DNA of 64,000 nt from a virus, in the IMG/VR virus record IMGVR_UViG_3300035670_000145, positions 9,811 to 73,810 of that record. One strand, written 5' to 3'. Position 1 is the first letter of the stretch. Each line of letters starts with the position of its first letter. Shown here piece after piece: positions 9,730 to 57,619 of this stretch. Position numbers and translations under genes: made by a program. The notes under the pieces are model-generated. The model was not told where the DNA came from. It ran no database searches and was given only the letters and a program-made list of their open reading frames with translations.

Positions 9730-10635
9730 TCAGTTATCCTGCACGTAAATGACGCTCTTGGGATAGTAGAGAGCCACGCCACCAACGCGAGCATGGGCGG
9801 GAACAATGAATTCCAGACCACGCTGCTGGGGCGGGAACAGCTCAAGAGGTTGAGGGATGTGCAGTTGCACCTTGCCGGGATCGCGCTTGTAGACGACCAT
9901 GCGGTTTTTGCCAATCGAGCTATTAGCACCGGCGAGCTGGTTAATGGGCTCGACGTTGCGGATGTAGGGATTGGTGCGCAGGAAATATTCCAGGACGGTC
10001 ACGTCCGAAGAATCGCTATTGCGGGTGGTGCTCACCTTGTTATAGTCCTCATAAGCCATGAGGATGGTGTCAGGCTCTTCCTTCATTTTCGAGGCGCTGA
10101 TGATGGCAGTCACGCCATAGTTCAGCAGCTCGAGCATGTCCTGAGCAGTAGTGCCACTATCAGTGAACCACTTGTCAGCGATGACGAGATCAACCGTCGA
10201 ATTATTGAAGAAGCCGGCCAGGCCCACCGAGGACTCACCGAACATTGCCACTGCTTCAACCTTCTCTTCGTAAGCACGACGAACGGCATTAGCACGGCGC
10301 TGCTCAAGAGCAATGTTTGCCATTTGAGCGGCACGCAGTTCCTGAACGGTGTAGCCAAAGCTGCCCCCGAAAGAGCGAATATTGATGCTCTTTTCGGTTT
10401 GGCTGATGTCGGCACGAGGCAGATCATCGGCGGCGTCAGCAATCAGACGGAATTCACCCGTGGCATCCATGATGCGGTAGGTGAAAGTTTGTGCACCAGG
10501 GCCAGCTTCGCTGGTCACAGGCAGAATAGTAGGGTACTTGATGTCAGCGTAGGTGACTTCAAACACTTGCGGGCGAATGTACTCAAGCTGACGCTCAAGA
10601 AACAGACCCGCTTCATCCATGCGAAAATCAGACAT
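9730..10635 (-). CDS. Major capsid protein (DUF2184, HK97 fold)
   Basis: FL.RQLEYI, Y.Y..QEL.AA, GGV...YP motifs; follows protease and decoration genes. Confidence 0.92.
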   Translation of the reverse strand: MSDFRMDEAGLFLERQLEYIRPQVFEVTYADIKYPTILPVTSEAGPGAQTFTYRIMDATGEFRLIADAADDLPRADISQTEKSINIRSFGGSFGYTVQELRAAQMANIALEQRRANAVRRAYEEKVEAVAMFGESSVGLAGFFNNSTVDLVIADKWFTDSGTTAQDMLELLNYGVTAIISASKMKEEPDTILMAYEDYNKVSTTRNSDSSDVTVLEYFLRTNPYIRNVEPINQLAGANSSIGKNRMVVYKRDPGKVQLHIPQPLELFPPQQRGLEFIVPAHARVGGVALYYPKSVIYVQDN

Positions 10636-33762: not shown

Positions 33763-34087
33763 TTGCGGATTGCTAGTGAAAATCGCTGCATCGCTGCAGC
33801 AAACAAACAATAGGCGCAAGCGGCCAGAATGCTAGGTCACATAGGGAACACTGATCGCGGCAGACTGGTCATGCGTCAGATAAGCGGATACGCTTATCAG
33901 TGGAGGTTTCGGGATCCAACCATGAGTCACGCTGATCAGTCAACCGCCGCGGACGCCGCCCCTACCATGAGACTAGAGAGACTGAGCCGGATTGTTGCAA
34001 ACGGTCACATTTGCGCTGCTGATATCAGGAGTGCTAATGTTAAGAAATATTTTGTAACATTAGCAATATTGATATAAGCAACACTCA

Positions 34088-34300
34088 TGCAACGAAATGT
34101 GAAGAAATGTTAATTATTAAGAATTGTTAAGAAATGTTAATTATGAAGAAACGTTAAGAAATGTGAAATATTGCGAAATGTTAAGAAATGTTAAGAAATG
34201 TTACAAAATGTGAAGAAATGTAAATGTTAAGAAATGTCAAGAAATGTTACAAAATATAAATGTTAAGAAATGTTGCAAAATGTGAAGAATTGTTACAATA
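34088..34300 (+). repeat. Array of 10-bp TGTTAAGAAA/TGTTACAAAA/TGTGAAGAAA units (HLR1-like)
   Basis: 18 full 10-mers plus five 6-7 nt truncated units, counted directly. Confidence 0.9.
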
Positions 34301-36389: not shown

Positions 36390-36440
36390 ACAATAGAGCA
36401 GGAGAGGCCCCTGGAAAGGGGCCTGTAACAATGCTTCACA
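36390..36440 (-). promoter_or_regulatory. Early promoter cassette A
   Basis: TGTGAAGCAT-TGTTACA direct repeat, GC hairpin, -10 TATTGT. Confidence 0.75.
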
Positions 36441-36807
36441 CTGCATCAAGCCTTTCCGCTTCGCGCTCTGCCATGTGGCGCTGATTGGCAAGCCAGTTCC
36501 TAAATTCAACCCACGTAGCAGCAGGCACTGTGGCCATCGCCCAAGAGCTCACTGCTTGACGCCTGTCGCAATCTTCATTGCAATAGGAGATAGGAGCTTT
36601 GAGCATGGTCAACTTATGAGCAGCATGCTCGCAAAGATCGATGCCAGCGTGGTAGGAGCTGGGAAGCCATTCTAGAAAGGCCTCGGTAGTGCGCTGATTG
36701 GCGCAGAAAATGTGCGTGAAGAGCTCCTGTAGGTCGAGCATGTAAAGCTCGTGGCTGGTGGCTTTAGCCCAGAAGCCGTGGTCAGGACGATTGAAGGAGA
36801 TGGTCAT
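36436..36807 (-). CDS. Hypothetical early protein
   Basis: ATG at 36807 downstream of cassette B. Confidence 0.6.
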   Translation of the reverse strand: MTISFNRPDHGFWAKATSHELYMLDLQELFTHIFCANQRTTEAFLEWLPSSYHAGIDLCEHAAHKLTMLKAPISYCNEDCDRRQAVSSWAMATVPAATWVEFRNWLANQRHMAEREAERLDAV

Positions 36808-36848
36808 GGCTTGGAGAGTGGTGGAAGCTCGCGCCTCCGAACAAAGGA

Positions 36849-36899
36849 AGAATAGAGCAAAAAGGGGCTGTTGCCAGCCCATGAATCATTGGCTTCACA
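36849..36899 (-). promoter_or_regulatory. Early promoter cassette B
   Basis: TGTGAAG half-site, GC hairpin, -10 TATTCT at the same spacing. Confidence 0.7.
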
Positions 36900-36910
36900 A
36901 ATCGTTGCAA

Positions 36911-37048
36911 TCAGCGCCGTTGATCACAAATGCCGGCCAGCATTTCGCCCACGTGGGCATGGGCAGCACGAAGCTGGTCAAAGGCTTGATCGCGCTCCTT
37001 GCGGGCCTGGTAGTAGGCATCAGGGCCCTGAGGGTAGAAGTCGCGGCC
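36911..37048 (-). pseudogene. Orphaned original 3' half of gene 37569..37826
   Basis: Reads GRDFYPQGPDAYYQARKERDQAFDQLRAAHAHVGEMLAGICDQRR*; 30/44 identical to the upstream gene's C-half; no start codon. Confidence 0.9.
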
Positions 37049-37533
37049 TATATGTGTTGCCATATTTTGCGTAAAACAATTTGACTTATCAACGGCTGTG
37101 TTACATTAAATTTTCTCGCCAAAGTATTCGTCGATTCACCACCCGCCGCGTACAATTCTCTTATTTTTAGCACTTCTTTTTCTGTTAATTTTGCCTTGCA
37201 ATTTCTTTCACCTTTGGCGCTAGCAAAGATACGTCTTCCTCTTTCGACCATGTCATTGTAATTATCTTGGTCCGTGCCAAGTTCCAAGTGAAAAGGATTA
37301 CAGCAAGAAGGGTTGTCACACTTATGGCGCACCAGCATGCCAGTTGGTATTTCTCCAAAGGCAAATTCCCATGCTGCGCGGTGAGCCAGCATCTGTCTTT
37401 TGTTGACCGTGATTCTTCCATATCCAGACTTGAGTCTTGACTTGGACTTCCATTCCCAGCAAAGATCTACCGGCGCTTCGGTAACGCTTCCCCAAAGGCG
37501 CTGCCATGCCGGCACTTTATTCCATTGTGTCAT
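37048..37533 (-). mobile_element. HNH homing endonuclease
   Basis: CWEW....GYG...AHR......H.CDNP.C.NP.HL..GT...N motif plus C-terminal HTH; AT-richer than flanks. Confidence 0.9.
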
Positions 37534-37568
37534 GGGTTAAAAATCAACGACTGAGAGAGTCTAGCAAC

Positions 37569-37826
37569 TCATTGCTGGTTGCAGATACCTATCAGAACTT
37601 CTTCCACATATTTGTGGGCAGAGCGGAGACTGTCAAAAGCAGCTTGCCTTTCTTGGCGATGCTGGTAAAAAGCATCTGGACCTTGTGGATAAAAATCCCG
37701 ACCATTTGACTCGGCAGCGGCTAGAGCATCAATCGCCTTGTCAATGGCATCGTACGCAGCAGCGTAACCATCGCGCAGGTCGGTGAAGCCGGTGCCGTTG
37801 AGATGGATGGTGGGGATGGTTGCCAT
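37569..37826 (-). CDS. Early protein with swapped, recoded C-terminal half
   Basis: MATIPTIHLNGT...NGRDFYPQG; codon style changes near 37703. Confidence 0.75.
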   Translation of the reverse strand: MATIPTIHLNGTGFTDLRDGYAAAYDAIDKAIDALAAAESNGRDFYPQGPDAFYQHRQERQAAFDSLRSAHKYVEEVLIGICNQQ

Positions 37827-37864
37827 GGGAAAGAAAGGAAAGGGCGTTGCCGCCGGACAAAGGA

Positions 37865-37914
37865 ACAATACAGGCAAGAGGGGCCGAAACCCCTGCTTGT
37901 CACAAAGCTTCACA
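37865..37914 (-). promoter_or_regulatory. Early promoter cassette C
   Basis: TGTGAAGCTT-TGTGACA, GC hairpin, TATTGT. Confidence 0.75.
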
Positions 37915-38166
37915 AACAGCGTCAATCAGTTTCTTCTGTGCCACTCGCTTGCCATTAACCTTCCAAATCGTGGTGCTACTCCAGCGACCACGGCCCATGC
38001 ACCGAGGCACAATCCAGCAAGCTATTTCCTTTCCATTAAATTCTCCAGAAGCAAAACCTCCAGCGCTGCTTCCATTTTTGCAGCTCTGAGAAAATGCTTG
38101 GTCATAAAGCTTGCCAGTGAAGACAGTGGCGTCAGAAACAAGAAATAGAGCGTCCATGGTGATCAA
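37900..38166 (-). CDS. Hypothetical early protein
   Basis: 88-aa ORF. Confidence 0.55.
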   Translation of the reverse strand: MITMDALFLVSDATVFTGKLYDQAFSQSCKNGSSAGGFASGEFNGKEIACWIVPRCMGRGRWSSTTIWKVNGKRVAQKKLIDAVCEAL

Positions 38167-38402
38167 ACGTTGATGATGTTGTTGAAATACTGTTCAGCTT
38201 CCCACTTGTGATCGAACAGGCCGTAGGAAGTGTCGTGAATAGAAAGCTCAGTCAAGCGCTCCCAGCCATAGGCTTCCCATTTGACGGTGCCATCGGCACA
38301 GTGGAATTTGCGCACGCCATAGCCAGAATGCTGGGCTTGGCGGTCGGCTTCGAGCTTGGCGAGGTAAGGGCTCTCGCGGTGGCCTTCGATGGTGCGGTGC
38401 AT
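38163..38402 (-). CDS. Hypothetical early protein
   Basis: ATG at 38402 downstream of cassette D. Confidence 0.6.
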   Translation of the reverse strand: MHRTIEGHRESPYLAKLEADRQAQHSGYGVRKFHCADGTVKWEAYGWERLTELSIHDTSYGLFDHKWEAEQYFNNIINV

Positions 38403-38437
38403 GACTTTGGTGACGGTGGGCTCGCGCCCGTGATAGA

Positions 38438-38488
38438 ACAATAGAGGCAGGAGGGGCCTGGTCAGCCCCTCCGCAACAATTGTTTACA
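38438..38488 (-). promoter_or_regulatory. Early promoter cassette D
   Basis: TGTAAACAAT-TGTTGCG, GC hairpin, TATTGT. Confidence 0.7.
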
Positions 38489-38665
38489 AACGGTTCGGGC
38501 CTTGCATGCCCTGCACCACCATGAAGCTCTTAGTGGTGAACACGGCTTTGAGGCTTCGAGCCTGTCGTTCGAGGGCATTGCGGTCAGGACTGGAATCAAG
38601 CATGGTCCAATCCATGCCTGACTCTGCCCATAGGCTCCAAACGTCGCGATCAAGAACTGCCATGA

Positions 38666-55613: not shown

Positions 55614-55991
55614 ATGCACGACTCTGTTAATTCTCCCTTTCATTACTCCTGCAGCCCCATCCAATGTGTAGAGGCCATTGAAGCATCAATGAGCCTGGAA
55701 GCCTTTAAGGGCTTCTTGAAGGGTAATTGCATTAAATACTTGTGGCGTTATCAGCACAAAAACGGCGCCGAAGATCTCAAAAAAGCTCAGTGGTATTTGG
55801 GTCGTTTAATTGAGATTCGCGAAGGTGAAGAAGACAAGGCCAGGAAAATAATGGAAGCCAGCAAAGAGGTGGCCAGCTATATTGCCAACCACGATCCTGA
55901 TGACTACATGATTAGTGGGTGCCCTGATGGTTTCTGCCCGCTGCCAAGCGTGAGACAAGGCCCTGCAGAGGTGTTCAAGCCTATTGCTTAA
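55614..55991 (+). CDS. DUF3310 / T7 gp1.7-like nucleotide kinase domain protein
   Basis: D.VN.P.HY, GN.IKY.WR..HKNG.EDLKKA.WY. Confidence 0.88.
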   Translation: MHDSVNSPFHYSCSPIQCVEAIEASMSLEAFKGFLKGNCIKYLWRYQHKNGAEDLKKAQWYLGRLIEIREGEEDKARKIMEASKEVASYIANHDPDDYMISGCPDGFCPLPSVRQGPAEVFKPIA

Positions 55992-56476
55992 CCAGCTAGC
56001 CCTAATTGTAAAGAAAGCGGCCAAATGCGGGCCGCTTTTTCATGCGCCTCGTGGATGGGCACGATTCGTTGCGTTTCGTGCATCCAAGCCTCCCATTCTC
56101 CAATGGCAGTATGAGCGCTAACAAAACTATGGGCATAAATCCATGCCATCAAAGCATCTTCACGCTCTTGGCTCCAGAACTGCTGTGGACGCCACCATTC
56201 AAACAGCGGCAGATTACTTTTGGCAGCATTGCAACTAAGGCATGAAGGGGCACTGTTCCATTTTGCAAAGTGCGGCCCTCCCTTGCTTTTGGGCACAATA
56301 TGATCAATGGTTAGTTTTTCGTTCCATCGCCCGCAATAAGCACAGGCGCAATGGTTGAAAGGGCCTCGCAGCGGATAGTCTTCAAAGATGCTCTTGCGAA
56401 ATCGGCGCTTCGCCTCTCCAGGGCGTAAAACAGACAAAGAATAAAGAAGATTCTCTGGTCCATTGTCTTGCCGCAT
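55988..56476 (-). CDS. HNH endonuclease (McrA-type)
   Basis: CAYCG...LTIDH.VP.S.GG....N....C..CN..K. Confidence 0.85.
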   Translation of the reverse strand: MRQDNGPENLLYSLSVLRPGEAKRRFRKSIFEDYPLRGPFNHCACAYCGRWNEKLTIDHIVPKSKGGPHFAKWNSAPSCLSCNAAKSNLPLFEWWRPQQFWSQEREDALMAWIYAHSFVSAHTAIGEWEAWMHETQRIVPIHEAHEKAARIWPLSLQLGLAG

Positions 56477-56566
56477 AGCATCACAATGCTCGCTTGTCTT
56501 TAGCTTAGACCACGAAAGACGATGGAGGGGAGAATGTAGAATATAAGAAAAAGTGTCACTGCTCCA

Positions 56567-56776
56567 ATGAAAACTTGGCAAGAAAAGGCTGCCGATTTGG
56601 CGGTGACAGTTACGGCAGGCATGCTTCTTGCCACTGGTGGAACTATGGTTGCTATTGGCACGCAACAAGCTCGCATTACCACGCAAGTGGAAACCGTCAT
56701 TGAAAAACTTGACGCTCTCACGGAAAATATTAAAAGCCTAGAAACTCGTGTGCGCTCTTTGGAAATTGAGCGCTAA
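56567..56776 (+). CDS. Membrane-anchored coiled-coil protein (lysis module)
   Basis: Hydrophobic N-terminus and R...LE terminus; upstream of the endolysin. Confidence 0.55.
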   Translation: MKTWQEKAADLAVTVTAGMLLATGGTMVAIGTQQARITTQVETVIEKLDALTENIKSLETRVRSLEIER

Positions 56777-56951: not shown

Positions 56952-57509
56952 TCACAACCACTTCCAGTTCTGCCTGCGAACAATTTTATTGATAGCGGTG
57001 CTGTTTACGCCGTAAAGCGCCGCTATTTTTGTTTGTGCTAAGCCTTGGCCGTGTAGTCGGCGAATCTCGATCACATCGGCCTCCTTTAGTTTGGCCTTGT
57101 GATGAGCCTCTCCGATAATTACAGTTCCATCTCTCCACTTGTCTTGAGTATTCCGAGCGGGTGTTCCGTAGTATAAATTTTCCACGCTGTTGTCATTTTT
57201 TCCATTGGGGCCATGAAGCACCCACTGGCCTTCTGGCTTGGAACCAAGAAATGCCATCGCGACAAGTTTGTGGACAGTGCAAGGCCTCGGTTTTTCTTTT
57301 TCTTGCCAAGAAAAGCGAACCAGGTCGTAACCGTCAGTGTCTTTGCACGGTTTTAAGATTTTTTCCGGAACGGTTCTGGTTTCCGGTTTTCCATGCCTGG
57401 TCCCGCAAGAGACCACTCGTCTTAGGCTTTTAACCCGTCCCATATTGCTAACTTCGTAGCGGCCTTCTGCGCCAGGCACTGGCCGCCATTCTTCTGCGAT
57501 AATGTTCAT
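56952..57509 (-). mobile_element. NUMOD4-HNH homing endonuclease
   Basis: E.WRPV....YEVSN.GRV.S; VH.LVA.AF; H..G...N...NL..GT...N; antisense within the lysis module. Confidence 0.9.
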
Positions 57510-57619
57510 GATTGCTCGATAACGCGAGTGATTCACGGGCTCGGTGGAGGGAAACCACGCGGGCCCACCCCAATAATAGCCGTTAGACTGGCTAAAAGAA
57601 GCAGTGTCGAATAGATGGC

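Follow-up and report, generated by a model that had tools for sequence, protein, structure and literature searches.

A small gene in a cyanophage genome very likely carries, in the middle of its coding sequence, a homing-endonuclease cassette: a foreign allele of codons 40-85, a spacer and an HNH_3 gene, which together keep the phage gene whole while a presumed cleavage activity drives their spread. The native end of the gene is left stranded on the far side of the endonuclease gene. The window analysed here is a stretch of 64,000 nt (positions 9,811 to 73,810) of IMG/VR record IMGVR_UViG_3300035670_000145, a 73.8-kb cyanophage sequence that is rated complete and whose nearest named relative is the Synechococcus siphophage S-CBS4.

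The hybrid gene, the HNH gene and the orphan tail

The gene, the HNH gene and the orphan lie exactly where a first-pass annotation of this locus had placed them, all on the minus strand. The target gene is an intact ORF of 85 codons (37826-37569). Its codons 1-39 (37710-37826), which encode a predicted first helix and the start of a loop, are native to the phage; codons 40-85 plus the stop codon (37569-37709), in frame with the native part, are attributed to the cassette. A 35-nt spacer (37534-37568) runs from the stop codon of this tail to the start of a free-standing HNH_3 homing endonuclease gene, whose product of 161 aa has an HTH-like region at its C-terminus (37048-37533). The HNH gene is followed by a second, start-less copy of the tail (codons 42-86 plus stop; 36911-37048), hereafter the orphan, which begins on the G of that gene's TAG stop. 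The cassette thus extends over ~660 bp, from 37709 to about 37049. On the far side of the orphan, a hairpin with a T-run (36865-36880, minus strand), a terminator-like site, appears to be the original terminator of the target gene, and the flank that carries it recurs behind the intact gene in two relatives (L005 and L011). The next gene downstream (36436-36807) has only one relative.

The hybrid reading frame is uninterrupted and stops before the HNH ORF, which has its own start, and a search for introns or other RNA families found no Rfam family at E<=1 within 36400-38500. Insertion into mid-gene without an intron or an intein, as originally proposed, is therefore upheld. So is the proposal that the protein is restored, since the hybrid is intact, retains 13 of the 14 tail positions that never vary among cassette-free alleles, and yields a confident helical-hairpin model. 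The model of the target protein has two helices (residues 14-37 and 52-83) joined by a loop, with a mean pLDDT of 84.5, so that the junction is predicted to fall in the inter-helix loop and the cassette to exchange helix 2. No significant match to this model was found in the PDB, no Pfam or PHROG family was assigned to the protein, and its matches in the protein atlas are viral hypothetical proteins only. In seven other loci (L033 and L063-L068), the allele of the target gene extends beyond the usual stop, giving products of 93-100 aa.

The two tails differ sharply in composition and sequence. In the window, codons 1-39 and the orphan both have a GC3 of 0.67, as against 0.35 for the upstream tail and 0.43 for the HNH gene; hence, the orphan does have the codon style of the gene's 5' half, as had been noticed from the sequence. 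The tails are identical at 30/44 residues (tblastn E 1e-19 in a local comparison), and their DNA matches at 79/132 bases (60%), with a longest exact run of 7 nt. Their synonymous sites are saturated and the remaining 14/44 residues are changed. Because the first nine codons of the tails are all synonymously different, which is correct, the upstream tail had been taken for a recoded copy. Recoding is not needed to explain this. Of the 30 codons whose residue is conserved between the tails, 20 are written differently, and the probability that at least nine such codons follow one another somewhere is 0.13. Twenty-nine cassette-free alleles encode the same nine residues, with a median of 6/9 codons different from the orphan, and the nine codons of the cassette differ from those of two HNH-free alleles (L015 and L019) at only 2/9, within standing variation. 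The upstream tail is thus a diverged, AT-richer natural allele, not a synonymous rewrite.

The HNH ORF matches Pfam HNH_3 (PF13392; E 5.7e-15, 55.1 bits against a gathering cut-off of 24.8) and PHROG HNH endonuclease families (E down to 2e-33), and the motif keeps its His, Asn and Cys in all of three HNH copies compared. Its C-terminal region matches the PHROG HTH DNA-binding family phrog_517 (E 6e-6, residues 99-154) and, below the cut-off, HTH_7 (E 0.009). No solved structural relative was found by sequence search with either the single protein or a three-sequence profile. The nearest HNH protein in a named phage, at 45.6% identity, is that of Synechococcus phage S-CBS4 (L095, 52130-52636), where the gene lies directly behind thy1 (thymidylate synthase). 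A survey of HNH flanks for protein-level duplications, as the first-pass annotation had suggested, covered 14 HNH-like ORFs with usable flanks in the collected loci and recovered such duplications only in the four carriers in which they were known; none is present at the S-CBS4 HNH gene behind thy1 or at the second HNH_3 ORF of the window. This second ORF (194 aa; 56952-57536, minus strand) sits at a divergent gene junction and adjoins another ORF (55988-56686, minus strand) in whose translation an HNH-like motif can be seen.

How is the HNH gene expressed? The mobile unit had been described as a recoded tail, a promoter and the HNH gene. Low GC3 in all six carriers supports the foreign tail and the HNH gene as parts of this unit, but a promoter could not be established in the spacer of the window. 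There, TGCTAGACT is a degenerate copy of an extended -10-like motif, TGcTATCAT, that is kept in other carriers (six spacers compared). A consensus scan of the window spacer found no sigma-70-type promoter and no terminator, so co-transcription of the HNH gene with the target gene is as likely as transcription from a separate promoter.

Some further features of the window lie outside the cassette. A repeated intergenic unit precedes small minus-strand genes at ~36810-36885, 37830-37895 and 38420-38480 (minus strand). It consists of a GC hairpin, a TTGCCTnTATTGTTC-like box and a second GC-rich hairpin, and is also found 3' of the target gene in related loci. Between gene blocks, positions 34000-34300 are very AT-rich (GC 0.23-0.29) with a strong positive GC skew.

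Cassette-free alleles, other carriers and footprints

Which of the two tails is native? A scan of viral contigs gave 80 loci with the target gene, 79 of them with no adjacent HNH gene, so the cassette can be compared with a large series of cassette-free alleles. The relatives with the closest 5' halves (L005, L006, L010 and L011) share 38-39 of 41 residues of that half with the window. Their tails match the orphan at 41-43 of 44 residues and the upstream tail at only 30-31, and for the nearest cassette-free loci overall the ranges are 40-43 and 28-32; thus, cassette-free alleles in which the 5' half is joined to an orphan-type tail, which had been predicted, do exist. When the window is aligned with L011 at the DNA level, 110 of the first 114 nt agree, and the similarity breaks down from nt 118 (codon 40) onward. 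With the orphan, the tails of L011 and L005 share ~93% of their DNA, a likeness that extends into the 3' flank with its terminator; dS between the orphan and L011 is 0.29. In a tree of tail DNA, the orphan groups with L005, L006 and L011 (support 99/97), and the upstream tail sits on a long branch away from native tails.

Native codons 40-41 are missing from the carriers, and L40-type alleles make up 40 of the 57 distinct cassette-free proteins. Since carriers have no native codons 40-41 to return, L40-type alleles cannot be deletion products of carriers, and the empty, cassette-free state is then the ancestral one. The event itself was an insertion rather than a deletion. The orphans, for their part, look unconstrained, which fits a non-functional remnant. 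The window orphan has Y73H at a residue that is invariant in the 57 distinct cassette-free proteins, and that of another carrier (L088) has Y46C; an invariant Tyr is thus changed in 2/4 orphans, as compared with any comparable change in 3/61 distinct cassette-free tail sequences.

The same cassette is found in other phages. A search with the HNH protein recovered five further carriers (L035, L086, L088, L090 and L091), with HNH proteins 74%-77% identical to that of the window, so that presence at this one site is patchy (six HNH carriers versus 79 HNH-free loci of the target gene). Three of them (L035, L088 and L090) have the gene, the HNH gene and the orphan, with a junction identical to that of the window: the G of TAG is the first base, and the orphan starts at codon 42. 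Their 5' halves and orphans represent three other phage backgrounds. In the tree of tail DNA, the four orphans lie on short branches, each among cassette-free tails from the phage background to which it belongs (support 99/97, 99/98, 100/97 and 84/95), and the cassette tails sit on long branches, although they were not recovered as a single clade in this tree, which is built on 129 columns. Composition follows the same division in all six carriers, with GC3 of 0.35-0.43 for the tails and 0.35-0.45 for the HNH genes, versus 0.56-0.67 for the 5' halves and 0.50-0.77 for the orphans. The old tail had been proposed to act as the downstream homology arm, and one junction in four backgrounds, with each orphan matching its own background, speaks for that proposal. 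Indeed, a shared junction with four background-specific orphans is what spread by homologous repair would predict, with the orphan as the right-hand arm. Repeated illegitimate insertion is disfavoured because it would be expected to leave differing junctions.

The other two carriers, L086 and L091, have the tail and the HNH gene with no orphan, the HNH gene there lying downstream of an intact gene; thus, the orphan is dispensable for persistence. In L086 (2983-3010), the HNH stop codon is followed by GACCAG, then by TTTGTAAAC and then by a hairpin, and this sequence resembles the last two codons of the target gene and its 3' flank. The orphan of L086 may have been deleted down to codon 83.

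The cassette lineage is old. The six cassette tails are only 55%-70% alike, with saturated synonymous sites, and HNH copies differ at 65%-86% of synonymous sites. Given this age, ordinary recombination in the flanks, instead of endonuclease-driven homing, could account for part of the pattern. The HNH protein has nevertheless been maintained: pairwise pN is 0.08-0.17 with near-saturated pS of 0.65-0.86 (five copies, L091 being left out), which indicates purifying selection in every carrier compared.

Alleles that lack the HNH gene can also carry pieces of the cassette. In L004, gene bases 115-198 match the cassette tail of the window at 83/84 positions, whereas the best cassette-free allele over this patch matches at only 68/84, and the regions on either side of the patch belong to another background. 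A second HNH-free allele, L051, follows the upstream copy of L035 as far as about codon 50 and then, starting at codon 51 and continuing into the flank, matches the L035 orphan at all but one base. L051 is probably an L035-type carrier that lost the HNH gene by exchange between its two tails, or else a product of short-patch repair. The symmetrical breakpoints of L035 and L051 had also raised codon 50/51 as a candidate cut site. This was dropped, since L051 makes better sense as a footprint or a product of loss, and the start of the L035 orphan, which resembles the native tails of L083 and L071, also disfavours it. Four of the six cassette tails have both Ser40 and His56, a pair that the 57 distinct cassette-free proteins show only in L004, L032, L043 and L044; L051 has Ser40 alone. 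The upstream tail and the orphan thus do recombine, even though their longest exact match in the window is 7 nt. The arrangement had been expected to resist deletion by recombination. In light of HNH-free alleles with patches of cassette tail (L004 and probably L051), that expectation fails in its absolute form and holds only relatively.

Proposed mechanism and alternative histories

Cassette-type DNA has its left edge at codon 39/40 in the window as well as in L004 and L088, and the orphans are native from codon 42. These edges suggest the following scheme. The HNH protein would nick or cut cassette-free alleles within about ten bases of codons 39-42, in the inter-helix loop, with little resection. 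The broken left end would then invade a co-infecting carrier in the homologous 5' half and copy the foreign tail and the HNH gene, and the right end, from about codon 42, would pair with the carrier's own orphan tail. The product would have the native 5' half, the foreign tail, the HNH gene and the recipient's native tail as an untranslated orphan. Such a product would keep the gene whole with no splicing of RNA or protein, and the former target site would be altered in both of its copies. The only consistent hints that the cassette tail is protected from the enzyme are Ser40, in four tails, and the loss of one codon from the conserved DFYPQG motif in the remaining two. The founding event was probably a one-sided illegitimate repair, with a donor whose HNH gene lay behind an intact gene, as in L086. 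T4 intron homing offers documented cases of one-sided illegitimate repair of double-strand breaks (PMC2988022). In the scheme given here we infer that the enzyme is active, where it cuts, that carriers are immune and that the founding repair was one-sided.

Could the same pattern have arisen without homing? The cassette may have entered once, long ago, by an illegitimate event and been inherited vertically ever since, its various backgrounds having been supplied by mosaic recombination in the flanks, with an HNH protein that is not the driver and may target a site elsewhere. Saturated synonymous sites in the HNH gene do make the cassette old, an identical junction in four carriers does point to one founding event, and the phage group is visibly mosaic (for example, the order of neighboring genes varies). 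This history is nonetheless unlikely. The orphans are far closer to local cassette-free tails than the cassettes are to each other (dS of 0.29 between the window orphan and L011, as compared with pS of ~0.8 between HNH copies). In three backgrounds, the exchanges to the left and to the right both map only a few bases from the junction, as expected of a break at this position, and the HNH gene is under purifying selection in every carrier compared. It is barely credible that the locus arose by local tandem duplication of the 3' half of the gene, with divergence of the copies and later landing of an HNH gene between them. The tails are direct repeats, in the same orientation and encoding the same part of the protein, as a duplication would leave them, but the upstream copy has the GC3 of the HNH gene rather than that of the phage gene (0.35 versus 0.67). 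Synonymous sites between the copies are saturated, and yet the orphan remains ~93% identical to the tails of relatives; moreover, a patch of the cassette tail is also found in L004, in a different background.

The orphan might instead be kept as a working part of the element, for example as a peptide of 50 aa translated from an ATG inside the 3' end of the HNH gene. All four orphans are indeed still open, and each has an in-frame ATG five codons upstream, which would give ORFs of 49-50 aa (36911-37063 on the minus strand of the window, 1193-1342 in L035, and at the HNH 3' end in L088 and L090). However, this ATG lies within the HNH Ile-Trp codons ATA TGG and follows from their conservation, and no ribosome-binding site was seen for the ATG-started ORF. 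With the invariant Tyr lost in 2/4 orphans, and with L086 and L091 persisting with no orphan at all, a working role is very improbable. Homing of a cassette with its own replacement gene end is thus the favored reading.

What are the implications of this reading? These natural intermediates show how a homing endonuclease can inhabit a phage protein gene without an intron or an intein, and cassettes of this kind carry halves of genes from one phage lineage to another. In annotation, a gene fragment that lacks a start and immediately follows an HNH gene can be recognized as a scar of this process, rather than as a pseudogene of unknown origin or an assembly error. The empty alleles, the four carriers with one junction, the two orphan-free carriers and the HNH-free patch alleles are concrete substrates for cut mapping or a homing assay. 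More tentatively, carrying a replacement gene end might be a general and so far undescribed route by which free-standing endonucleases of phages enter coding sequences, with a full cycle represented here, from invasion through footprinted loss to re-invasion. Because the break would fall in a loop between two helices, each round would swap half-proteins between lineages and so drive intragenic mosaicism; this wider proposal is possible but somewhat doubtful.

Relation to known mobile endonucleases

The mechanism itself is not new, in that homing inside a coding sequence with neither intron nor intein has already been described in fungal mitochondria (PMC3630166). Mobile endonuclease ORFs (mORFs) form gene hybrids there with atp6, atp9, cox2 and nad3 of Glomus sp., and further hybrids with atp9 of Rhizopus and cox2 of Mortierella (PMC3630166); a 1994 case in atp6 of Allomyces macrogynus is cited in the same paper. 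In Endoconidiophora, partial C-terminal duplications of cob and atp6 lie beside endonuclease ORFs (PMC6279837). The likeness to the window is close: a foreign C-terminal segment is in frame with the native core, and an endonuclease ORF comes next; the native C-terminus, left behind on the downstream side, resembles the gene of element-free relatives more than it resembles the inserted copy; and most differences between the two copies are synonymous or conservative. The enzymes of mORFs are LAGLIDADG or GIY-YIG proteins, whereas that of the window is an HNH_3 protein, encoded by a separate, unfused ORF, and the genome is that of a tailed cyanophage rather than mtDNA. The window cassette thus seems to work like an mORF but, given its enzyme and its genome, is not a member of the mORF lineages. 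The phage case also comes with a series of empty alleles, four carriers with one junction, orphan-free carriers and HNH-free footprints.

The nicking endonucleases of the I-HmuI type, from Bacillus phages SPO1 and SP82, are likewise small proteins with an HNH_3 domain; they are encoded in introns, unlike the free-standing HNH gene described here. A cut close to the insertion point is typical of I-HmuI, and a cut near the insertion point is also what the edges of the cassette suggest.

Intronless homing in phage T4 offers another parallel. The free-standing endonucleases SegB, SegF, SegG and MobE spread in this way (PMC2988022, PMC2790892, PMC2330249), and like them the HNH gene of the window is a patchily distributed phage gene, co-inherited with neighboring sequence of its target gene and presumably spread by double-strand-break repair between co-infecting phages. 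The T4 elements are intergenic and have no duplicated gene fragment, whereas the cassette lies inside an ORF in four carriers and brings a replacement for the part that it displaces. This layout is not described in three phage papers (PMC2988022, PMC10448857, PMC12724721), and a literature search of incomplete coverage found no published phage example of it.

Phage endonuclease genes are known in, or at the end of, coding sequences, with no intron or intein and with gene function kept, as in the window. In Aeromonas phage Aeh1, nrdA is split by mobE, as cited in PMC10448857, but the gene there works as two polypeptides and nothing is duplicated. In mycobacteriophage Omega, insertion of the HNH gene gp51 gave lysin A a new 3' end (PMC3706429). 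This is the published phage case that comes closest, although 35 bp of the target were lost there and no orphan copy is reported. Set beside these systems, the window cassette is a genuine natural case of an already known type of mobile element; its setting is new, and it is documented unusually well.
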